A stretch of 36,195 nucleotides of DNA from an uncultured Dehalococcoidia bacterium (GCA_964401855.1 CAYOAF010000099.1:1-36195), one strand, 5' to 3'; shown: positions 2,148 through 27,101, counted from the stretch's first letter. Numbers and translations: made by a program. Notes: generated by a model not told the origin, from the sequence alone.

Positions 2148-2186
2148 ATGTCATGCTGAGCCAGCCGCAGCGGCAAAGGAGCATCA
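2148..2186. repeat. Hairpin-type intergenic repeat, ATGTCAT[TG]CTGAG family
   Basis: ATGTCATGCTGAGCCAGCCGCAGCGGCAAAGGAGCATC lies in the 164-nt cobS-cbiB gap. It shares ATGTCATnCTGAG with 19915 and 27024, and its ATGCT...AGCAT ends can pair. Confidence 0.45.
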
Positions 2187-3189: not shown

Positions 3190-4288
3190 CCGGCCTACAC
3201 CGGGCCGGCCGGTGCACGGAGGCGTCAAGACCGCCGAGCTTCGCGCCTTGGGCATGACGCTGGAAGAGGTGCTGGACTTCAGCGCCAGCATCAGCCCCCT
3301 GGGTCCTCCCGCCGGGACTTGGGAAGCCCTCAGCAGGGTCGACCTGGCGGCCTACCCCGACCCGCAATGCCTGGAGCTCCGAGAAGGCCTCTCCCGCCAC
3401 CTGTCCGGCTCCCTGCCGGGAAGCGTGCCCGTCGAGCGCATCCTGGTGGGCAACGGCTCCACCGAGATCATCCACCTGCTGGCCCGAATCTTCCTCTCGC
3501 CGCCTCGTCCGGGGACCGGCAATACCGCCTTCTTGCTGGCACCCACCTACGGCGAATACGATGGCGCGTGCCGGTTGGCGGGGGCCGGTACCTCTTGTCA
3601 GGACGGGGCAGACCGCCCCGGTTTCCGGTGGGACCTGGCCCTGGCGGCCCGGCACATCTCCCGCGAGCGCCCCAGCCTGGTGTTCGTGTGCAACCCCAAC
3701 AATCCCACGGGGGTCTATCTGCAACACTCCGAGGTGGAAGTCCTCGCGGAGGCCACATCTAGGGCGGGGGGACTGCTGGTGGTAGACGAGGCTTACCTAG
3801 CCTTTGTTGAAGACCCCTGGGACTCTCAAGCCCTGCTGGACCATGGCTGCGTAGTGCTGTTGCGCTCCATGACCAAGGACTACGCGCTGACCGGACTTCG
3901 GCTGGGCTTCTGTTTGGCGCCGGAGGACTTGACCGGGCGCTTGGCGGCCTTCCAACCGGACTGGAGCGTCAACGGCTTGGCCCAGGCGGCCGGCCTGGCC
4001 GCTCTGGCCGACGGCGAGTATCTCCCCAGAGCCCGCCTGGCCGTGGCCCAGGCCAAGGAATACCTGACGGTCCGGCTTACCGGTTTGGGGTTCGGCGTGC
4101 CGCCCTCCGCGGCCAACTTCCTGCTGGTCCAGGTGGGCGACGCTTCCTCCTGGCGCGACCGGCTGACGCGAAAGGGGCTGTTCGTCCGGGACTGCGCTTC
4201 CTTTGGCCTGCCCCAGTACATCCGAGTGGGAATCCGTCCGCTTGCTGATTGCCGCCGCCTGGTCGAGGCGATGGCCGGGCTCCGGTAA
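3176..4288 (+). CDS. cobD: L-threonine-O-3-phosphate decarboxylase (PLP-dependent, HisC-like aminotransferase fold)
   Basis: Overlaps the cbiB end by 14 nt. Has N-terminal HGG, SASISPLGPP, and the PLP-lysine region RSMTKDYALTGLRLGF. Placement directly after cbiB supports the CobD decarboxylase role. A HisC paralog cannot be excluded from sequence alone. Confidence 0.78.
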   Translation: MESSSRPTPGRPVHGGVKTAELRALGMTLEEVLDFSASISPLGPPAGTWEALSRVDLAAYPDPQCLELREGLSRHLSGSLPGSVPVERILVGNGSTEIIHLLARIFLSPPRPGTGNTAFLLAPTYGEYDGACRLAGAGTSCQDGADRPGFRWDLALAARHISRERPSLVFVCNPNNPTGVYLQHSEVEVLAEATSRAGGLLVVDEAYLAFVEDPWDSQALLDHGCVVLLRSMTKDYALTGLRLGFCLAPEDLTGRLAAFQPDWSVNGLAQAAGLAALADGEYLPRARLAVAQAKEYLTVRLTGLGFGVPPSAANFLLVQVGDASSWRDRLTRKGLFVRDCASFGLPQYIRVGIRPLADCRRLVEAMAGLR

Positions 4289-5077: not shown

Positions 5078-7737
5078 TGGTGAACATCTCATTTGAAAAA
5101 ATAACCCTCTCCAACGGACTCGAAGTCATCCTGCACCGGGACCATTCAATCCCGCTGGCGGCGGTCAACGTCTGGTATCATGTCGGCTCCAAAGACGAGG
5201 AGATAGGCCGCACCGGCTTCGCCCACCTTTTCGAACACGTGATGTTCGAAGGCTCCAAGAACCATAACCGGAGCTACTTCGAGCCGTTGCAGAAGGCCGG
5301 GGCCAACCTCAACGGTTCTACCACGCCGGACCGGACCAACTACTGGGAGGACGTGCCCTCCAACTACTTGGAGCTGGCGCTATGGCTGGAATCCGACCGG
5401 ATGGGCTTCTTGATGGAGGCCCTGGACCAGAAGCGCTTCGACATCCAACGCGATGTGGTGAAAAACGAGCGGCGTCAGACCTATGAGAACCGCCCCTACG
5501 GCATGGCCTACTGGCGCCTTCAAGAGGCCGTGTTCCCGATGCCTCATCCCTACCACTGGATGACCATCGGTTCCCAGGAAGACCTAGACGCGGCCAGCCT
5601 GGACGACGTCAAGGATTTCTTCCGGCGCTTCTACTCCCCCTCCAACGCCAGCCTGGCCATCGCCGGACACTTCCAGCGAGACCAAACCCTGGACCTGATC
5701 AACCGGTATTTCGGAGACCTGCCTCCGGGCCCGGCCTTGCCCCGCAAGGGACGCTTCGATTCCGGGCTGGCGGGCCGGGTGGAACTGGAGATGCGGGACA
5801 AGGTCTCACTGCCCCGCTTATATATAGCCTGGGCCACCCCGCCCGACCTGAGCGCCGCCGACGCGCCGTTGGAGTTTCTTCAGGCGATACTCTCCGATGG
5901 CATCACCTCTCGCCTGCACCGGTCCCTGGTCTATGAGAAGCAGATAGCCCAGAGCGCCCTCATCCGCTACCATCCATCGGAGATAGCCGGGCAGTTCGTC
6001 ATCCAGGTCACGGCGGCAGCCGGTCACGACCTCGCTGAAGTGGAGGCCGCCACCGACGCCGAGGTGGAGCGCCTGTGGCGAGAGCCCCCCACCGGCGAAG
6101 AGATAACCCGGATCAAGAATCGGATCAGCGCCGCCCACTTCCGCCAATTGGCCAGGATCGGTGGATTTGGGGGCCGCGCCGACCAGTTGAACCATTTCAA
6201 CACCTTCGGCGGTGACCCGGGCTTGATAAATTCAATTCTGGACCGGTACTTGGCCGTCCAGCGGGAAGACATCTTGCGGGTCGGCCAAGCCGTGCTGAAT
6301 CACCGGCAGGTAAGGCTGCGGGTATTGCCCGAGGACTCCTTCCAACCCGCCGTCACACCCGTTGCCGTGAACCGGGCATCCATGCCCCAGCCGGCGGAGG
6401 AGCCTTCTTTCACGCCTCCCAAGCCATCGCACCTCCGGCTGGAAAACGGCCTGAAAATCACGGTGATCGAGCAGCCAAGACTTCCCATTGTCTCCTTCGG
6501 GCTCATGATCCAGGCCGGAGCCGCCGCCGACCCTGTCGAGTTTCCCGGACTGGCCAGCTTCACCGCCCAGTTGCTGGCAGAAGGGACCTCGTCCCGTTCC
6601 AGCCAGGAGATCGCGGCCGCCTTCGAGTTCTTGGGCGCCCGAATTTCAATCGAGGTAGGCCGGGAGCACACGCTGTTGGCCACCGAAACTATGTCGAAGG
6701 ACTGGCCTTCCGCCCTGGAGTTGATGGCCGACCTTGTGAAGCACCCCACGTTTCCCGATCACGAGTTGGAGAGGGTGCGCCGCGAGGAGTTGACCGACCT
6801 GCGCCGGAGCAAGGACGATCCGGCCGCCACGGCCGAACGGCTGGTTTCGGGCCTTATGTTCGACCAAGGCAGCGGATACGGCCACCCGATACGTGGCACG
6901 GAGGCGGCATTGGGCTCCCTGTCCCGGGACAACGTGACGTCCCATTTCCGACGGGCCTTCAGTCCCGCCTCCGCGATGCTGATCGTGGCAGGGGACGTGA
7001 ACCTCGCCGATGTCCGGGCTCGGGCGGAGGCCGCCCTGGGGGACTGGCGAGCCGGATCGGATGCCGGCGTATCCCCGGCGCCTACCTCAGATGGCAAAGC
7101 GGCGGCCGCCGCGATCTACCTGGTGGACCGGCCGGGGGCAGCCCAATCGGTGATCCGGGCGCTTCAGACCACCATACCCCGGCATCATTCGGACTACTTC
7201 GGCCTTGTGCTGCTCAACTCCGCTTTCGGCGGACAGTTCGAGGCACGCCTGAACCTGAACTTGCGCCAGGAGAAGGGCTACAGCTACGGGTACCACTCGT
7301 ACGTACAGTGGCACCGGGGCCCATCCTTGCTGCTCGCCGGAGGCAGCGTCCATACCGCGGTGACCAAGGAATCGGTGGCGGAAACGTTGCGGGAGTTCAA
7401 TGAGGTCCACTCGGAGCGGCCCATCAGCCAGAAAGAGCTGGAGGAGGCCAGGGCGGGAATGCTGCGGGCCTACCCGGCCAGCTTCGAGCGGCCCGGACAG
7501 GTTTTGGGCCACCTCATCCAACTGACTCTGTACGACCTGCCCGACGACTATTTTCAAACGGTGCGATCTCGAGTGAAGGAGGTCTCCCTGGCCGAGGTCC
7601 AGCGTATCGGAGCGGAGAGGATATTCCCGGACCAACTCAAGGTCCTGGTGGTGGGTGACCGCGAGGCGGTAGAGGCCGGGCTGCGAGAGCTAGGCCTGCC
7701 GGTGGTGCTCCTGGACGAAAACGGGGCCGAGCTGTAG
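5077..7737 (+). CDS. M16 family zinc metallopeptidase (insulinase/pitrilysin-like, two tandem M16 halves)
   Basis: HLFEHVMFEGS is the inverted zincin HxxEH motif, followed by downstream NGSTTPDRTNY. At 886 aa it contains a second, inactive-type M16 repeat in the C-terminal half. Confidence 0.9.
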   Translation: MVNISFEKITLSNGLEVILHRDHSIPLAAVNVWYHVGSKDEEIGRTGFAHLFEHVMFEGSKNHNRSYFEPLQKAGANLNGSTTPDRTNYWEDVPSNYLELALWLESDRMGFLMEALDQKRFDIQRDVVKNERRQTYENRPYGMAYWRLQEAVFPMPHPYHWMTIGSQEDLDAASLDDVKDFFRRFYSPSNASLAIAGHFQRDQTLDLINRYFGDLPPGPALPRKGRFDSGLAGRVELEMRDKVSLPRLYIAWATPPDLSAADAPLEFLQAILSDGITSRLHRSLVYEKQIAQSALIRYHPSEIAGQFVIQVTAAAGHDLAEVEAATDAEVERLWREPPTGEEITRIKNRISAAHFRQLARIGGFGGRADQLNHFNTFGGDPGLINSILDRYLAVQREDILRVGQAVLNHRQVRLRVLPEDSFQPAVTPVAVNRASMPQPAEEPSFTPPKPSHLRLENGLKITVIEQPRLPIVSFGLMIQAGAAADPVEFPGLASFTAQLLAEGTSSRSSQEIAAAFEFLGARISIEVGREHTLLATETMSKDWPSALELMADLVKHPTFPDHELERVRREELTDLRRSKDDPAATAERLVSGLMFDQGSGYGHPIRGTEAALGSLSRDNVTSHFRRAFSPASAMLIVAGDVNLADVRARAEAALGDWRAGSDAGVSPAPTSDGKAAAAAIYLVDRPGAAQSVIRALQTTIPRHHSDYFGLVLLNSAFGGQFEARLNLNLRQEKGYSYGYHSYVQWHRGPSLLLAGGSVHTAVTKESVAETLREFNEVHSERPISQKELEEARAGMLRAYPASFERPGQVLGHLIQLTLYDLPDDYFQTVRSRVKEVSLAEVQRIGAERIFPDQLKVLVVGDREAVEAGLRELGLPVVLLDENGAEL

Positions 7738-10323: not shown

Positions 10324-12779
10324 CTAGCCCGGTGTCTCGCAATTGGCTTGCCGCCCGGTCTTTACCCACAGCGTTTCGCCGTTGATGATGAACTCGGCGA
10401 TCCCGTCTTGGTCTGTCCGGAATACCCCGCCAGGACCCACCACCTCGCCAAGCCTTTCGACCACTTCCGGAGACGGATGATTGAACCGGTTTTCCTTTCC
10501 CACGGACACGACCGTGAGGGCGGGGTCCGCTCGAGCCAGAAAGGCCTCCGTGGTGGATATCTTGCTACCATGGTGGGCCACCTTCAACACCGTGGTTTCC
10601 AACGCCGCGCTATGCTTCGCCAGGTAATGCTCCGCCGTCGCTTCGATGTTGGCGGCCAGTTAGGAAGTTCACTTCTCCATATACCAGCCGGAGCACGACG
10701 CTGCTATTGTTCGCGTCCGGCCGCGGACCCCAGGTTGGCTCCGAAGGTGGGTGTACCACTTCCAGGGTTACGCCCGGCTACAGGAATATCTCGTAACCCG
10801 CTTCTACTGCAATCTCAGTAGGTCCTCTGCGTTCCAGGGTAGCCCACCACTGAGGGTAGAGAACGCTATTCGGTTGCTCCAGTCCCACCAAAACGGAACC
10901 CACCCGGTATCGCTCCAGTACCTCCAGCAGTCCCCGGCTGTGATCGGCGTCCATGTGAGTCAAAACCACCATGTCCAGACTTCGGTCACCGGCGGACAGC
11001 GGACCGGGGAGACTGCGGGTGGCGCTATCCGTCTCCGGTCCTCCATCCACCAGCACCTGCCGCCCCGAGGGCGTGACGGTCAGGGCGCTGTCGCCTTGGC
11101 CAACGTCGAAAAAATAGACGTGCAGCTTGCCGTCCGGCCCGCTGAAGACCTGAGCCAAGAGGAAGACGGCGGCGGGGGCCAGCACGATTGCCAGGCCGGC
11201 CAGCCCCAGGGCCTCGCCGCGGCGGGGCTGGCCTGGGCCGAATCAGCCAGTCCAGGCACCCCGGCAGCCGGCTGATCCGGCCCAGGCCGCCGGTGAGGAG
11301 TAGGAGTCCAACCAACACGATGTACCAGGCCCAGACCAGCCCGTCGCCAACCCAGGCGCCCGAGACCGCGGGTTTGGGCGCCCCGGAGACCAGTCCCGCC
11401 AGGTAGGACAGAGGCGCCCAGGTTATCCAGCCGAAGAATTGGCCGATGGCCGAGTACACCAGCCCGGCGACCGCCGTTGCCAGAGTGCCCAGCAAGATAA
11501 AGGGCAACGCGGGCAGGGCCAGCATGGTGACAAAGATGCCGAACAGCGGGACTCGGTGGAAGTTGAAAGCCACCAGGGGCCAGGTCGCCAATATCGCCGC
11601 CAACGCCACGATCAGGGCCGAGACTACCCAGGTCGGAGTGTAGGTGATCCATGGCCTCTGCCGGCCGGTCCGCATTGCGATGGCCGTGGCGATCCTGGCC
11701 TGGTAGGGCAGGGCCACGGCCATGCCCGCCATGGCAGCGAAGCTAAGCTGGAACGACACCTGCCGGATCACTTCCGGGTTAATGGCCGCCATGCTGGCCA
11801 CGCTCAAGGCCAACGCCGGAAGAATACTCCTGGGGCGGCCCAGTGCCAGGACCGCCAAGAAGACCGTGCCCATGATGGCGGCCCGCACCACTGAAGGAGG
11901 CCCGCTGCTGACCAGGGCGTAGAGCCACATGAAGGCCAGAGGCAACACCAGGTATAGTTGCCGGGGGCGGCTCAGCAACCAGGCCGAGGCCCCCAGCGAC
12001 ATCGCCAGCAGTATGCCCACGCGCAAGCCGGAGATGGCCAGGAGGTGGAAGGTGCCGGTGCCTCGGAAGTCCGCCGCCAGGCCGTCGGGCAGCTTGCCCC
12101 GCTGTCCCAGCAGCAGGGCCTGGGCCAGCGCCGATTGGGGCGCGCCCAGGGAGTCTGCAATGCTCTTGGACAGTGTCCGGCGCAGGTCGAATATCCAACC
12201 CCGCCAGCGGCTCCCGGCACCCTGGGAGATAAGCGTCACCTCGCGGGACCAGAGGATACCAGAGATGCCCTGGTCGGCCAGGTAAGATGGATAGTCGAAG
12301 TTGGCGATGGGGCGAGGCTGCTCCAAGATGCCCCCTAGCCGCAAGCGGTCCCCGTAGCGGAAAAAGGGAGAATCTCGCTGAAGGACCAGGGATTCGGGAG
12401 GCTCGGCGTAGGCCAGGGCTCTGGTCCGTATGGTCTCCCAGCCCTCGCCCCGGTCGATTGACTCCACCGCGATGCGGAGCTTGACCCGCCGCCCGGTTGC
12501 TTCAGGGTCGTCGATGACCCGCCCCTGGACCAGCACGGTTTGTCCATCCTCGGTTACCAGAGACGTCGCCGGGGCAGCGGTGGTCTCGGCCCGCAACAGC
12601 CCCAGCAAAAGGAACGCGGCCAGCACCGCGGGCCAGAGGGAAACCCGGTACAGGAAGAGCAGGCCCCCGACGGGGACCACGGCCAGCAACAGCAGGAGCA
12701 CCGGCAGGGCAGGGGCATCCACCTGAAGGCTCAGGAGCACGCCGGACAGCCAGGCCAACACCACCGGACTCAGCCTCAT
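10324..12779 (-). pseudogene. comEC: ComEC/Rec2 DNA-internalization competence channel, disrupted (two frameshifts plus an in-frame TAG)
   Basis: Three track ORFs tile one gene. 11025..12779 is the N-terminal/competence membrane domain. 10778..11185 is the metallo-beta-lactamase domain start (HVYFFDVGQGDS...LTHMDADH). 10324..10602 is the MBL end (VLKVAHHGS...NRFNHP). The frame changes near 11190-11245. There is a TAG at 10778-10780, after which the same frame continues with PGVTLEVVHPP...NNSSVVLRLVYGEVNFL. A second frameshift lies near 10650-10660. Confidence 0.8.
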
Positions 12780-16568: not shown

Positions 16569-18050
16569 CTAGCCAGCCATCACGAACTGGCCACCTTGCT
16601 GGATGAGTTTCTCGTCCCTGACCAGCTGGCGAATGTCAGGAATTTGCTAAAAGAGAAGAAACCTGGGACCACGCTGCCCCGGTCCACCGACCATCTTGGC
16701 AGGTCCAGTAAAAACTTGGTGACCGCGTTGAAATAGCCATCGATGTTCAGGTCTTTGGTGTCCGGCATGTCCGGCAGGGCGACCTTGAACTCGGACTGGG
16801 CCTTCTCCAGCAGTGAGAGGTTCTCGCCGGGGTCATCGCCGGTGTGGCGTAACTGAAATCGGTGGCGCGCGCTGGTGCGGTCCAACGCCACCGGAACCAG
16901 GACCAGGGGAGCGCGCCATCCCCTCCTGGCTGCTGTCCGACTCGTACCAGGTGGGCCTCCCCAAGACCAGGAACAGGGTGTTGACTCCCTGCTCCGGGAT
17001 GAAGCTATTGACCAGATAGTAAGTGGAGAGGAGGCGAGTCTGAAGCCCCGGTGAGGGCAGCGCCGTCTGCAACCGGGAGTCGGTGTGCCGCGCCGCCGGC
17101 TCAGCCGAGACTTCGTCATCGGCAGGCTGGCCAAATAGCTCGCCTTGCTCTTCTTCGGCGATGGGGAGAAAGGACATGGGCCTGCCTTCCTCCATTAGGA
17201 TGTGGTACGCCTGGGAAGGCAGTTCATCCACCACCTCCAACCCCCGCGCGCGCAGTAGTCGGTAGTTGAGCAGCGGGTTCCGCAGGCCCAGGTCGAGTAG
17301 CTCTCGCCGTGAAGCCTCCAGCCGTTCACGGATGACCGTGGCGGTGCCGGCAAAGGTGCGGGCGGCACCCTCTACAGCCTGGACCAGCGTGTCAAGGTGA
17401 CCTACGGGAGGGTCGTCGGCCAGGAAATCCACGATCCCCTCGGGGACTTTCCTGGCGCCGATGTCTTGGTAAAGCTCCTGGACCCACGCGGTAAGCCGGG
17501 AGAGGCCCTCCCAGCCGGACACTTCGCCGTGCCATCGGGAGCCGAACACCTGTTGGCCCAGGGGCTCATGCTGCCGTATAACGGATTGACGCCGCTGGGC
17601 TTCTAGGACCGCCTCGACCAGATCGATGCTCGTGCCGCCGAGCCACCGGAGACGGCCTCGGGCGATGCCCCCCGCCTCTCGCCGGGCCCGCCAGTATTTG
17701 GGGGAAACCCAGCGCCACCATTGCTGTCCCTTGGCGGCCAGGGTTTCCCTGGTCTGAATCAGGTCCCGGTCCCAGGCTTCGGGCCGGAGCGCCCGGTCAT
17801 GCCGGCCGTGAAGGCGGGCCAGACCGGAACCGGCGGACAAGAGATCGCCCAGCTCTTCCCTGCGGGCCTCCCACTGGCCGGAAGCAAGCCGTACTCCCCG
17901 CAGACCGGGCGATTCCATGGCTCGCCGGGCCGCGAGGCATAGGGCTTCTCGCTCCGACTGGCCCCTCGGGGCGGGCAGCTTCAGGGCGTCGGCCAGGGAC
18001 TTTGCGGCGTCTTCCAAGGCCTGTAGCGAGGAATGGTGATTCTGTGCCAT
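16569..18050 (-). pseudogene. Relic of a DUF4011-type superfamily-1 helicase (N-terminal region only, frameshifted, no ATPase domains)
   Basis: ORF 16833..18119 contains RELLDLGLRNPLLNYR...LQTALPSPGLQTRLLSTYYLVNSFIPEQGVNTLFLVLG. The domain continues in ORF 16580..17134 (RAPLVLVPVALDR...FQLRHTGDDPGENLSLLEKAQSEFKVALPDMP...GFFSFSKFL) after a frameshift near 16917-16930. A second frame break lies near 16620, and the sequence stops at 16569-16571. No Walker A or helicase core follows. Confidence 0.6.
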
Positions 18051-18334
18051 CTGTCCTTTGAGACGGCCTCCCCTTGGACTGGGGGCCCGGTCCCGTGTCC
18101 GCCTCACCCCCACGCTCAAAACGTGCCAAAGACAACGAGCACCACAGCAGCATGTTTTCGGCCAGGTTCGGGTTACGGTCCGCCGTGGGCCTTTTCATTC
18201 TCCAACGTGAAACTGGAGTAGAGACACAGAGTGGACCCTCACCCAGCCCAGGCTGCACCCGGGTATCCCTCCACCAGTGGGAGAGGGAACGAGGGCGAGG
18301 ACCCTTGAAGGGCCGCCAGGGTCTCCTGCGAGGC

Positions 18335-18405: not shown

Positions 18406-19023
18406 ATGCAAGAACACCCCGGCAGTTTCCACGCTTCCGGTATTATCTTAGCTGGGGGCCGGAGCCAGCGTCTGGGCCGAGACAAGGCGCTGGAGACCGT
18501 CGGGGGCCAACCTCTGGTCCGCCGGGTCATCGACCGGATCTCCCAGGTAACCGAGGAAATAGTGGTGGTGGTGGCGGAACAGTCCCAGGCCGACGGGTTG
18601 CCGCTGACCGCGGAGCACCGGGTCGCCTTGGACCGCTACCCTGGCGGCGGCGCCCTGGGGGGCATCTTCACCGGCCTTGCCGCGGCTCAGCACCAGTGGG
18701 GCATCGCCGTCGCCTGCGATATGCCGTTTCTCAACCTCGGCCTGCTGCGCCGCCTGCTTTGCCTCCGGCACGGGGCCGACGCCGTGGTCCCAATGCTGAG
18801 GGGGTGGCCCGAGCCAACCCACGCGATATACTCCAAGAGTTGCCTGCCCTTCATGGAAGAGCGGCTTTTGGCCGGCGACCCGAAAATCTCCAGGTTCTAT
18901 GACAGGGTGCGGGTCGCCTACCTCCCCGAAGAGGAGATCGCCGCCGTGGACCCGGACTTTCTGAGCTTTTTCAACGTCAACACCGCCGAAGACCTGGCCA
19001 GGGCCTGCGAGGTGGAGAGCTAG
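18406..19023 (+). CDS. mobA: Molybdenum cofactor guanylyltransferase
   Basis: GIILAGGRSQRLGRDKAL is the LAGGxxxRxGxDK signature. Also ACDMPFL and FFNVNTAEDL. Length is typical for MobA. Confidence 0.88.
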   Translation: MQEHPGSFHASGIILAGGRSQRLGRDKALETVGGQPLVRRVIDRISQVTEEIVVVVAEQSQADGLPLTAEHRVALDRYPGGGALGGIFTGLAAAQHQWGIAVACDMPFLNLGLLRRLLCLRHGADAVVPMLRGWPEPTHAIYSKSCLPFMEERLLAGDPKISRFYDRVRVAYLPEEEIAAVDPDFLSFFNVNTAEDLARACEVES

Positions 19024-19115
19024 GGGCGGTAGCGATGGCAGAGCCGATGCCAGCAACCCTATCAACAGCCCATTGCACTTTTTCGGAGAGGAGTTGGCTG
19101 GAAGGGAGTAATTGG

Positions 19116-19622
19116 ATGGGTAAAATTGCTAATGGCGATGGTGGTGCATTACCTGATGAGACAAAAGGCACCAGCTACACAAGATACATAGAAAGGCAAT
19201 TTACGTTGACCGCCCACCGGTGCAACACGGGTGGGCGGTGTCGTATGCTAGGATGCGGCAGGTCCTACATGTGGCAAGCGGGCCAGGTACCCCCACTAGA
19301 ATCGGTGGATACGCTGCTATCAGAATGGATAGCGTTCCGCAACAAACCTAGCAAACTAGCGCGAGGCAGGCAAACTAATGAGTCCGATGCCTCAACGAAG
19401 AGGAAAGCCGTTGAGTCCGCGTTCCCTGACAGCGTTCGCTTGATCAAGCCGTTTCGAGATATTACCATACTCTGTGACTGGGAACCCGCCCAGACCAGCA
19501 ACTTGTTCAGGCAGGTCTCACAATACCTAGGGTCGACTGTTCTTAATAACCAAAACGCTCCATTTTTTGATTCCGGACATGTTCTTGATTTTGGACCGGA
19601 AGCAATCTTTTCCGCCGATTAG
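19116..19622 (+). CDS. Hypothetical protein (lower-GC island, no recognisable family)
   Basis: Track ORF 19035..19622. ATG 19116 has a GGAAGGGAG RBS 7 nt upstream. Visibly lower GC than the flanks. May be the N-terminal part of one gene split at the T6 run 19563-19568. Confidence 0.35.
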   Translation: MGKIANGDGGALPDETKGTSYTRYIERQFTLTAHRCNTGGRCRMLGCGRSYMWQAGQVPPLESVDTLLSEWIAFRNKPSKLARGRQTNESDASTKRKAVESAFPDSVRLIKPFRDITILCDWEPAQTSNLFRQVSQYLGSTVLNNQNAPFFDSGHVLDFGPEAIFSAD

Positions 19623-19896
19623 GCGCGAGATCAATGCGACAAATTTGGGGGTAGCCCTCCCCCGCGAGATCGACCGACTCGACGGACCCGATTATGCAAA
19701 GATGATGTCGTACATCCGCGACGAAATAAGAAACCTCTTTGAAGCTCAGACAGTCGTCACGCTTAAAGATGGGTCGACCCAGAAAATCACCAGAGTCAGA
19801 GATTTCCGGTGGCTGTCCCCTCGGCAGGGCAGAAACGGCCCACTGCCAAGGACTATTTGCAAAGTGGTGGACAATTTCTTCGATCCTCGGAAGTGA
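19567..19896 (+). CDS. Hypothetical protein (lower-GC island); possibly the C-terminal part of the preceding ORF
   Basis: Overlaps the preceding ORF in the +1 frame starting inside a T6 homopolymer. No family recognised. Confidence 0.35.
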   Translation: MIPDMFLILDRKQSFPPIRREINATNLGVALPREIDRLDGPDYAKMMSYIRDEIRNLFEAQTVVTLKDGSTQKITRVRDFRWLSPRQGRNGPLPRTICKVVDNFFDPRK

Positions 19897-19914
19897 GGCT
19901 TTGCCCCGCCCACC

Positions 19915-20330
19915 ATGTCATTCTGAGCGAAGCGAAGAATCTCCCCTTTCGTAGCGGCTAGAGGGGCACACTTTTTGAATTACTATGTATACATCATGAG
20001 CAACGCTTCCAAAACCCTGTACGTTGGCGTGACAAACGACCTAGCCCGCAGAGTCGTCATACATAGAAACAAGACTGGCAGCGCATTCGTCAAGAAGTAC
20101 AACGTGACGAGGTTGGTCTATTTTGATGCCATTGAGGACGTATCCGCCGCAATTGCCCGCGAGAAACAACTCAAGGGTTGGGTGAGAACCAAGAAGACTG
20201 CCTTGATCGAGACGCTTAATCCCCAATGGAAGGACTTGAGCAATGGGTTCGTATAATAGCAGGAATGTCTGGTAACCGAGGCTGCCGGAGGGAGATTCTT
20301 CACCCGCCTCCGGCGGGTGAAGAATGACAT
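19915..20330 (+). mobile_element. Candidate 416-bp mobile unit: GIY-YIG nuclease gene bracketed by inverted copies of a hairpin repeat
   Basis: The left end 19915-19945 reads ATGTCATTCT-gagcgaagc-GAAGAATCTCCC. The right end 20290-20330, read on the minus strand, is ATGTCATTCT-tcacccgccggaggcgggt-GAAGAATCTCCC. The right copy forms a perfect 14-bp stem (20295-20308 with 20312-20325). Confidence 0.45.
19975..20256 (+). CDS. GIY-YIG nuclease family protein (YhbQ/UPF0213-like, single domain)
   Basis: NYYVYIMSNASKTLYVGVTNDLARRVVIHRN...REKQLKGW. The GIY/YVG, Arg and Glu positions of the GIY-YIG fold are all present. TTG start 9 nt after GAGGGG. Confidence 0.85.
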   Translation: MNYYVYIMSNASKTLYVGVTNDLARRVVIHRNKTGSAFVKKYNVTRLVYFDAIEDVSAAIAREKQLKGWVRTKKTALIETLNPQWKDLSNGFV

Positions 20331-20482
20331 GATGCTGTATTAGTACCGAACAAGGCCTAATTCGGGAGCCACGGCATGCCCAGGACTCCAACAGGAACAC
20401 TCATCCGATCACCGTGGCCGCTAGCGTCAACGGGTCAGGGAATCGCTGACTGCCAACTCTCGGAGATACTTGGCAACAGGGA

Positions 20483-20938
20483 GTGCACAACATGGAAGAA
20501 TGTTTGAGGGCGATTCTGTCGTCCCATGAGAAAGAGAAAGCTGAGCTGATACCGATCCTGCAAGAGGTCCAGGAGGAATACGGCTACCTTCCCCGGGAAA
20601 CAATGCTCGAAATCGCCAGGTTCACCCGCGTGCCCGAGGGACGGGTGTTCGGAGTGGCGTCGTTCTACGCCCAGTTCCGGTTTACGCCGGTGGGCAGGAA
20701 CATCGTCAGGGTTTGCCGGGGGACGGCCTGTCACGTCAGGGGCGCTCCGAAGATACTCCAGGAGATGGAGAACCAACTGGGCATCAAGGTGGACGAGACC
20801 ACTCCAGGCCTGGAATACACCCTGGAGACGGTGGCCTGTATCGGGGCCTGCTGTCTGGCCCCGGTGGTGAAGGTGGGAGCGGAAGTGCACGGCAAGCTGC
20901 GGTCCAGTGAAGTGGCCAAGATGCTGAAAGGACTCTGA
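20483..20938 (+). CDS. NuoE/HoxE-like [2Fe-2S] thioredoxin-fold subunit of an NAD-linked formate dehydrogenase/diaphorase module
   Basis: LIPILQEVQEEYGYLP...SFYAQFRF.P.GR..VRVCRGTACHVRG...ACIGACCLAPVV. Has the four-Cys pattern of the NuoE family. AGGGAG RBS upstream. Confidence 0.9.
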   Translation: MHNMEECLRAILSSHEKEKAELIPILQEVQEEYGYLPRETMLEIARFTRVPEGRVFGVASFYAQFRFTPVGRNIVRVCRGTACHVRGAPKILQEMENQLGIKVDETTPGLEYTLETVACIGACCLAPVVKVGAEVHGKLRSSEVAKMLKGL

Positions 20939-27023: not shown

Positions 27024-27101
27024 ATGTCATTCTGAGGAGCGAAGCTACGTAGAACCTCACCGTGACAACGAGATTCTACGCTTTGTTCGGAATCTATCAT
27101 G
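27024..27101. repeat. Long imperfect palindromic element of the ATGTCATTCTGAG family
   Basis: The left arm is ATGTCATTCTGAGGAGCGAAGCTACGTAGAACCTC, the centre is ACCGTGACAAC, and the right arm is GAGATTCTACGCTTTGTTCGGAATCTATCATG. The first 13 nt are identical to 19915-19927. A CCCCGAT-tgc-ATCGGGG hairpin follows at 27102-27118. Confidence 0.5.

Follow-up and report, generated by a model that had tools for sequence, protein, structure and literature searches.

Positions 19,915 to 20,330 of the DNA analysed here, a stretch of 36,195 nucleotides (nt) from an uncultured Dehalococcoidia bacterium (GCA_964401855.1 CAYOAF010000099.1:1-36195; hereafter the window, with all positions counted from its first letter), carry a gene for a small GIY-YIG nuclease bracketed by two inverted copies of a hairpin-forming repeat. 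This locus very probably belongs to the Ssn family, in which a single-stranded DNA (ssDNA) endonuclease gene has flanking cognate hairpin repeats, here lying within the superfamily of CGTC/TGTC-tagged REPs. Chenal et al. (Nat Commun 2025, PMC11893778) described the proteins of the Ssn family as site-specific endonucleases of ssDNA, ~94 aa long, with a single GIY-YIG domain (CDD cd10448), which bind their hairpin repeat solely in its single-stranded form and make their cut a few nt upstream. The Neisseria repeat is NTS (CGTCATTCCCGCGMAVGCGGGAATCYRG), the general name is Ssn-related motif (SRM), and 71% of the homolog genes were found with an SRM nearby, 42% with one on both sides (PMC11893778). 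In N. meningitidis, incoming transforming ssDNA is subject to restriction by this system if it has the repeats. The SRM-ssn-SRM arrangement was reported in the same study, where NTS-ssnA-NTS is likened to an insertion sequence, to IS200/IS605 and to REP/RAYT (PMC11893778).

The system is already described, and the window locus adds a member to it. A sequence-only reading of the window had placed the GIY-YIG open reading frame (ORF) between two inverted copies of one element, with coordinates and sequences that we confirm, and had correctly recognised the REPtron-like architecture, an analogy that the literature also draws (PMC11893778). Its suggestion of an undescribed system does not stand, as the family has been characterised as Ssn with NTS/SRM (PMC11893778). 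The components of the cassette are as follows.

19915..19945, + strand: SRM-L, the left Ssn-related motif, with the tag TGTC, a 5-nt arm ATTCT, the core GA-GCGAAGC-GA and the closing arm AGAAT, then C and the tail TCCC.
19975..20256, + strand: the putative ssn-type gene, starting with TTG and having a GAGGGG ribosome-binding site ~8 nt upstream, for a GIY-YIG nuclease of 93 aa and a single domain.
20290..20330, - strand: SRM-R, the right Ssn-related motif, inverted relative to SRM-L, with tag, arms and tail identical to those of SRM-L and a long GC-rich inner stem.

Identity of the nuclease

The 93-aa protein matches PF01541 (GIY-YIG) at residues 2-74 (E 2.9e-15), has no other domain and is shorter than the 150 aa that bound the Ssn family (PMC11893778). 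A tblastn search with it against PLSDB (a 7.3-Gb database) matched two N. gonorrhoeae chromosomes (E 6e-15); these entries, NZ_CP119140.1 (L095) and NZ_CP119142.1, are 2.17-Mb chromosomes misfiled as plasmids in PLSDB. The gonococcal match is a 94-aa ORF amid canonical NTS copies, with Y6, Y17 and E64 exactly where SsnA was mutated in PMC11893778. We take this ORF to be the SsnA ortholog, and the comparison with SsnA was made with this NTS-flanked N. gonorrhoeae protein, which stands in for the SsnA of N. meningitidis. Over 89 of its 94 aa, this ortholog shares 45% identity with the window protein (75 bits, E 2e-24), which lies inside the bounds used for SsnA homology in PMC11893778 (E < 1e-10, >75% of length). 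In the alignment, the window protein has Y6, Y16 and E63 at the places of Y6, Y17 and E64, which are catalytic in SsnA (PMC11893778), and among 30 homologs Y16, R26, H30 and E63 are invariant with Y6 at least 90% conserved.

The sequence-only reading had called the enzyme YhbQ-type. E. coli YhbQ is 26% identical to the window protein (39 bits, E 2e-10), and a sequence search of the PDB retrieved distant UPF0213 entries only (E 2e-5) and no Ssn structure; the YhbQ/UPF0213 proteins (cd10456) have the same fold and a similar size, but with the SsnA ortholog far nearer (45% and 75 bits against 26% and 39 bits) we rejected this identity. By these comparisons the enzyme appears to be of the Ssn type, not the YhbQ type. 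It is most improbable that the gene encodes a housekeeping YhbQ/UPF0213-type DNA-damage nuclease beside unrelated repeats: the weak homology to YhbQ and to the UPF0213 structures speaks for this explanation, whereas the much closer relationship to SsnA, the presence of repeats at 76 of 85 homologous loci and the variable presence of the gene among close relatives speak against it. A free-standing homing endonuclease of the I-TevI/Seg type was also considered and rejected, as the 93-aa protein lacks a C-terminal DNA-binding domain and its homologs in the phage collection are just 30-36% identical. Searches of the nuclease against NCBIfam and PADLOC assigned no family.

Anatomy of the flanking repeats

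SRM-L reads ATGTCATTCT/gagcgaagc/GAAGAATCTCCC on the + strand (19915-19945) and ends 29 nt before the start codon of the nuclease gene; SRM-R reads ATGTCATTCT/tcacccgccggaggcgggt/GAAGAATCTCCC on the - strand (20290-20330) and begins 33 nt past the gene end, so that both lie <500 bp from the gene, one on its 5' and one on its 3' side. The identity of the two copies reaches slightly outward, to CAYCATGTCATTCT. The pattern GTCATTCT-N(5-30)-AGAATC has only two sites in the window, namely SRM-L and SRM-R (0/100 shuffles). Both copies have the features used in recognition by SsnA, which are the GTC tag, a palindrome starting with AT and a C after the palindrome; mutagenesis of the Neisseria site showed that the C right after the palindrome weighs most in binding and the 3 nt before the palindrome in cleavage (PMC11893778). 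The arrangement GTC-A(T/Y)NNN...N'N'N'(A/R)T-C is present in both flanking copies and also in a solitary copy at 2148.

SRM-R forms a hairpin whose perfect 14-bp stem closes a 3-nt loop (GGA), as had been read from the sequence, with a free energy of -16.3 kcal/mol (z = -5.0) that was equalled in 0/200 shuffles. The core of SRM-L, ATTCT-GA-GCGAAGC-GA-AGAAT, includes the motif GCGNAGC, which is the consensus of an extraordinarily stable DNA mini-hairpin (PMC13037366), and we infer a fold in which ATTCT pairs with AGAAT, followed by tandem G.A pairs and the mini-hairpin.

Association of gene and repeat across relatives

A profile scan of one genome per species gave 80 loci with homologs 50-66% identical to the window protein; together with four further loci (L011-L014, homologs 72-77% identical) and the window these make up the 85 loci compared here. 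The profile-scan homologs come from at least ten phyla, with several copies in some metagenome-assembled genomes (MAGs), and their hosts include Chloroflexota, Acidobacteriota, Cyanobacteriota, Planctomycetota, Firmicutes, Bacteroidota, Saccharibacteria and Proteobacteria. The motif lies at most 300 bp from the gene in 76 of the 85 loci and on both sides in 59, which runs against a lack of flanking copies at other GIY-YIG genes of this kind, and the arrangement of the window (upstream on the + strand, downstream on the - strand) recurs in 46/85. Over all loci there is an orientation bias, with 78 + and 35 - copies upstream of the gene and 42 + and 78 - copies downstream.

The 85 loci contain 461 motif matches against 71 in shuffled sequence, and about half of them fall in the gene-adjacent 4% of the sequence. 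The repeats are not distributed independently of the gene, their density beside it being ~25x that in the rest of the loci; solitary copies occur at ~3x the shuffled expectation. This association of gene and repeat thus extends across phyla. An SRM-L-type element is found at the same place in L011-L014, and at the SRM-R position of these relatives the core is either short or long, such that the conservation of the flanking matches in relatives is borne out. No second GIY-YIG paralog is present in the window, nor within 10 kb of the gene in the 84 other loci.

The stem covaries strongly. In a test anchored on the 5' half only, each arm type was closed by its own complement: ATTCT in 135/200 cases, ATCCT in 110/228, ATGCT in 30/69, ATTCC in 28/68, ACCCT in 21/54 and ATGTT in 16/45. 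Off-diagonal closure counts are 10 or fewer, with non-cognate closure averaging 1.4% per test. This is evidence for selection on the hairpin.

The dominant form is a 25-nt element (142 of the 461 copies), of which SRM-L is typical. Among these short copies 102/142 have the core GA-[G/A]CGNAG[C/T]-GA, with an inner closing pair of G-C in 89 and A-T in 12 and with N free. The GCGNAGC core supports recognition at the level of ssDNA. The repeat class of this clade (Chloroflexota, Acidobacteriota, Cyanobacteria and others), GTCAT-YCT-GA-GCGNAGC-GA-AGR-ATC, is new here, as are the covariation of the stem and the differing gene contexts of the cassette.

The hairpins could instead act in RNA, as terminators, mRNA stabilisers or processing sites, in which case their position would reflect regulation of the nuclease gene and not recognition by its product. 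We consider this improbable. The repeats are intergenic and lie just 3' of ORFs, transcription of many REPs has been argued for by Di Nocera et al. (PMC3733652), SRM-L, given its distance from the start codon, is probably in the 5' untranslated region, and the solitary copy at 27024 pairs better with G-T (G-U) wobbles. Against this, no T-tract follows SRM-R and a promoter and terminator consensus scan of 19000-20600 gave no signal at the repeats, no terminator after SRM-R included; Rfam searches of the whole window (gathering thresholds) and of 19800-20480 (E-value mode) returned chance-level matches only; the dominant core GCGNAGC with its free N is the signature of a DNA mini-hairpin; the unpaired GTC tag and the 3' C, both conserved, are features that serve recognition by a protein; and SsnA does not bind the RNA form of its site (PMC11893778).

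Several individual loci show further features of the repeats. The closest annotated homolog (65% identical) is on a Planktothrix agardhii plasmid (L096, NZ_LR882964.1, 1190-2000), where it lies between an MmeI-type restriction-modification gene and the DISARM gene drmA, amid arrays of two alternating SRM types with ATTCT and ATCCT arms. In a Chloroflexota MAG (L080, JALZHI01; gene 6317-6580) the inverted repeats reach far past the SRM and share ~60 nt, including 16 nt 5' of the GTC tag, which suggests a recent inverted duplication or gene conversion between the ends; this MAG has a second copy of the gene (L055). Gene callers run the ssn ORFs of some alignment members (P0013, P0027, P0031 and P0115) through the repeats, giving spurious peptide tails that are SRMs translated in different frames, N-terminal ...SPGHSERSEESP and C-terminal ...DSSLRSE, ...DPSLCSG and ...GSFAALRMT.

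The published SRM pattern and solitary copies

A number of observations weigh against placing this locus in the Ssn family. The published search pattern, HGTCWYN(0-2)YYVSBRHN(0-5)WNVSBRGN(0-2)RNCYNB (PMC11893778), has no match in the window, neither flanking copy fitting it, and it is found within 500 bp of the gene in just 2/85 loci of this clade. The SRM-L fold computed with nearest-neighbour DNA parameters is not significant (z = 0.08). There are only two extra copies of the repeat in 36 kb, and both are weak. Finally, the ssDNA specificity and the cut position are extrapolated across 45% identity.

In a 3.3-kb gonococcal control locus the published pattern finds nine NTS. Its failure with the window elements results from a stem that differs in sequence and length and not from absence of the element; as a search tool it is suited to NTS-like stems. 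The Neisseria NTS and the window elements are both retrieved with a simpler descriptor, GTC-AYNNN-(3 to 60 nt)-N'N'N'RT-C. The non-significant fold of SRM-L follows from nearest-neighbour folding, which does not model the GCGNAGC mini-hairpin. The two extra copies in the window are as follows.

27024..27101, + strand: solitary degenerate SRM-like element, intergenic and directly past the stop codon of an acyl-CoA dehydrogenase gene; a long imperfect palindrome.
2148..2186, + strand: solitary weak SRM-like element, intergenic; GTC-ATGCT...AGCAT-C, with a compensatory arm change relative to ATTCT/AGAAT.

The 5' 13 nt of the 27024 copy are those of SRM-L, and a further 15 nt (GCATCATGTCATTCT) are those of the 5' flank of SRM-R; the fold of this copy is not significant (z -1.1). 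A census of the 13-mer in the window gives three matches against 0.86 expected, and 6/100 shuffles reach three, which is not significant alone; the motif of tag, arm and closure gives six matches against 2.0 expected, a number reached in 1/200 shuffles. The solitary relatives proposed earlier at these two positions are therefore both present, but they are weak.

Predicted activity

We infer the enzymatic specificity and the cut sites of the window protein by homology, with the mechanism carried over from the characterised Neisseria and Wolbachia enzymes. When repeat-bearing DNA becomes single-stranded, as transforming or conjugative DNA or in replication or repair intermediates, the repeat would fold into a hairpin. 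The 93-aa protein would bind this hairpin in one orientation only, needing the palindrome and the C that follows it, and would use Mg2+ and an active site of Y6, Y16 and E63 to cut a few nt 5' of the GTC tag. Because the tags face outward, the cuts are predicted just outside the cassette, the top strand being cut immediately to the left of 19915 and the bottom strand immediately to the right of 20330.

In the cell the system may serve to restrict ssDNA or to modulate recombination, as in N. meningitidis, and/or the cassette may spread selfishly. A ComEC-like competence protein is encoded in the window as well (11025-12779, - strand; PF03772 and DUF4131), and the host may take up ssDNA, the process in which SsnA acts in Neisseria. 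The ComEC-like gene is compatible with a transformation-linked role and is no evidence for it.

The MobA-NuoE site and possible movement of the cassette

The cassette lies between a MobA-like and a NuoE-like gene, in an intergenic site (19024-20482) that is a variable hot spot. Two further features are recognised here.

19044..20472, no strand: low-GC variable island between the MobA-like and NuoE-like genes, holding the cassette and a frameshifted homolog of a 262-aa ORF.
20331..20370, + strand: tail past SRM-R, ~30-40 nt with GrTGCTr....GAAC..AACC, tentatively delimited (alignment columns ~585-620), moderately conserved among cassettes from different gene contexts.

The tail may belong to the unit. 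The G+C content is 0.50-0.54 at ~18950-20450 and 0.60-0.70 in the surroundings; the lower-GC island noted in the sequence-only reading is thus real, but it spans ~19044-20472 and so extends beyond the 416-bp unit to include the frameshifted homolog. A 428-aa DUF4011 protein (16833-18119, - strand) is encoded upstream of the MobA-like gene at the island's left border; it matches the PADLOC candidate defence models PDC-S37 (E 1.4e-76, over only part of a 1550-position profile) and Hhe, and may represent part of a defence helicase or a short relative of one.

The NuoE neighbour served as the anchor for comparing this site among metagenome contigs. In L098, which is closely related (MobA 83%, NuoE 85% and NuoF 89% identical), the gap between MobA and NuoE is 88 bp (3913-4000) and the whole 1.4-kb low-GC island is absent. 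In L099 (76-1749) the site is occupied by different cargo, namely a 196-aa ORF together with an AF2212-like antitoxin/PIN toxin pair. L101 (NuoE 87% identical) has an intact 262-aa ORF and no cassette, and is homologous to the window exactly as far as the left edge of SRM-L; at the right junction the two are unalignable until ~35 nt before the NuoE start, and there is no clean empty site. The overlapping 195-aa and 109-aa ORFs of the window (19035-19896) together match the single 262-aa ORF of L101 (62% and 55% identity), and the window gene is therefore frameshifted at ~19490-19570. The same split gene calls occur in the independent contigs L003, L178 and L185, so that this is probably a real pseudogene. 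Neither ORF of the pair matches a Pfam, NCBIfam or PADLOC family, and a homolog search with the 109-aa ORF gave one match only.

L011-L014 have the ~420-bp cassette in four different gene contexts, each with the same outward-tagged inverted pair. Their conserved block starts abruptly at CCNTGTCATTCT and ends ~30 nt past the right repeat. At the edges of these cassettes, an 81-aa ORF in L014 (5733-5978) ends inside the left repeat (...SRVILSEAKNLPPL*), and short fragments resembling a formate-dehydrogenase 2Fe-2S N-terminus (M..L.IN.Q.ITI.DG.S) adjoin the cassette in L011 (~5850-5950) and L013, with an intact formate-dehydrogenase-like N-terminus downstream of the cassette in L013 and L014; the L013 sequences lie at ~5290-5390 and from ~5827 onward. 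These edge ORFs may reflect insertion into genes or transduction of flanks. L011 also has a ~35-bp direct repeat (ATGTWAATCCCACCKTGGCTTT..TAGTTT) at ~5801-5840 and ~6440-6475, around the gene fragment and the cassette, and a related sequence lies inverted and downstream in L012; a further repeat family or a long duplication may account for this.

These comparisons suggest that the cassette may move as a unit, which is unproven, and a repeat-mobilising or repeat-homing role is a hypothesis in PMC11893778 and here alike. A rival reading, which overlaps with the Ssn assignment and adds mobility to it, is that SRM-ssn-SRM moves as an element in its own right, autonomously or semi-autonomously, in the manner of a REPtron or of homing: hairpins at either end of the cassette, or those of solitary repeats, would be nicked by the nuclease, and the host's replication or repair would copy the cassette and seed new repeats. 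We regard this as possible but somewhat doubtful. The cassette boundaries shared by L011-L014 in their four unrelated contexts, the precise left junction at SRM-L in the cassette-free L101, the absence of the whole island from L098, the ORFs truncated at the cassette edges, the location within a low-GC island, and the spread of 50-66% identical homologs over at least ten phyla with multiple copies in some MAGs all argue for movement.

Other observations argue against it. GIY-YIG enzymes are hydrolytic and are not known for strand-transfer activity, no target-site duplication is seen, and the right junction of L101 is unalignable, which leaves no clean empty site of the kind that the sequence-only reading had proposed to look for among related genomes. 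The identical protein is found on 11 marine-metagenome contigs, always in the same context, and these, together with all long-enough contigs with identical NuoE or the 195-aa ORF, keep the cassette in place, so there is no polymorphism within the population. The tagged strands differ between the two ends, unlike in the single-strand peel-and-paste of IS200/IS605, and the repeats flanking a gene are often of different arm types (21 same, 25 different). We put forward with some reserve, as an idea less likely than the Ssn assignment itself, that the cassette is a mobile element of a new mechanistic type, in which a hydrolytic ssDNA hairpin nuclease, and not a transposase, would trigger its own copying by host repair and so generate the CGTC/TGTC-tagged REPs, a superfamily with no mobilising enzyme known. 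The shared boundaries, the precise left junction, the truncated edge ORFs and the spread over phyla are compatible with this idea.

Comparison with known systems

The locus resembles the Ssn/SsnA system of N. meningitidis in both components: a ~94-aa single-domain GIY-YIG protein with the conserved Y/Y/E residues, and GTC-tagged hairpins, with an AT start and a 3' C, that bracket the gene; further likenesses are solitary intergenic copies and a wide phyletic spread. The differences are in the protein, which is 45% identical to the gonococcal ortholog, in the repeats and in the host. The window stems are TCT-GA-GCGNAGC-GA-AGA or 14 bp and GC-rich, whereas the NTS stem is TCCCGCG/CGCGGGA; the window has one outward-tagged inverted pair, whereas the gonococcal NTS form dense alternating clusters with the nearest copies tagged inward; and unlike Neisseria, the host is a marine metagenome bacterium with its nearest named relatives among Dehalococcoidia/Chloroflexota MAGs.

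The CGTC-tagged REP superfamily includes Neisseria dRS3 and Rickettsia RPE (Di Nocera et al., BMC Genomics 2013, PMC3733652). No dedicated enzyme was found for it in 2013 (PMC3733652), and its GIY-YIG partner was identified in 2025 (PMC11893778). The window repeats share with these REPs an unpaired CGTC/TGTC tag, a stem starting A-T, T-A, a short unpaired tail, an intergenic location and the common occurrence of inverted pairs. They differ from CGTC-1 to CGTC-4, which have a stem of 8-9 bp and a loop of 4-5 nt, in that SRM-L has 5 bp, tandem G.A pairs and 2 bp with a 3-nt loop, and SRM-R a 14-bp stem with a 3-nt loop; they would be a further CGTC-type family. REPtrons (RAYT with REPs/REPINs) resemble the locus in having a single small nuclease gene inside inverted hairpin repeats with dispersed orphans, recognition of ssDNA hairpins being presumed. 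The window enzyme is, however, a hydrolytic GIY-YIG nuclease without known transposition chemistry, and the tag is (C/T)GTC and not GTAG. A REPtron proper was rejected, the gene encoding a GIY-YIG domain only and no HUH/Y1 tyrosine transposase, and the tag being TGTC.

Implications

With this locus the Ssn/SRM system reaches marine Chloroflexota-like bacteria, and the data point to a large clade of many phyla with a cognate repeat that escapes the published SRM pattern; the 71% association of gene and repeat reported earlier is therefore probably too low. Spurious peptide tails (...HSERSEESP, ...DSSLRSE, ...FAALRMT) that contaminate predicted proteomes also have their origin in the repeats. 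Any new Ssn/repeat pair offers a candidate restriction enzyme for ssDNA with a new specificity, which gives the family biotechnological interest. The context comparisons are among the first locus-level hints of cassette movement and, if confirmed, would explain the origin of CGTC-tagged REPs.

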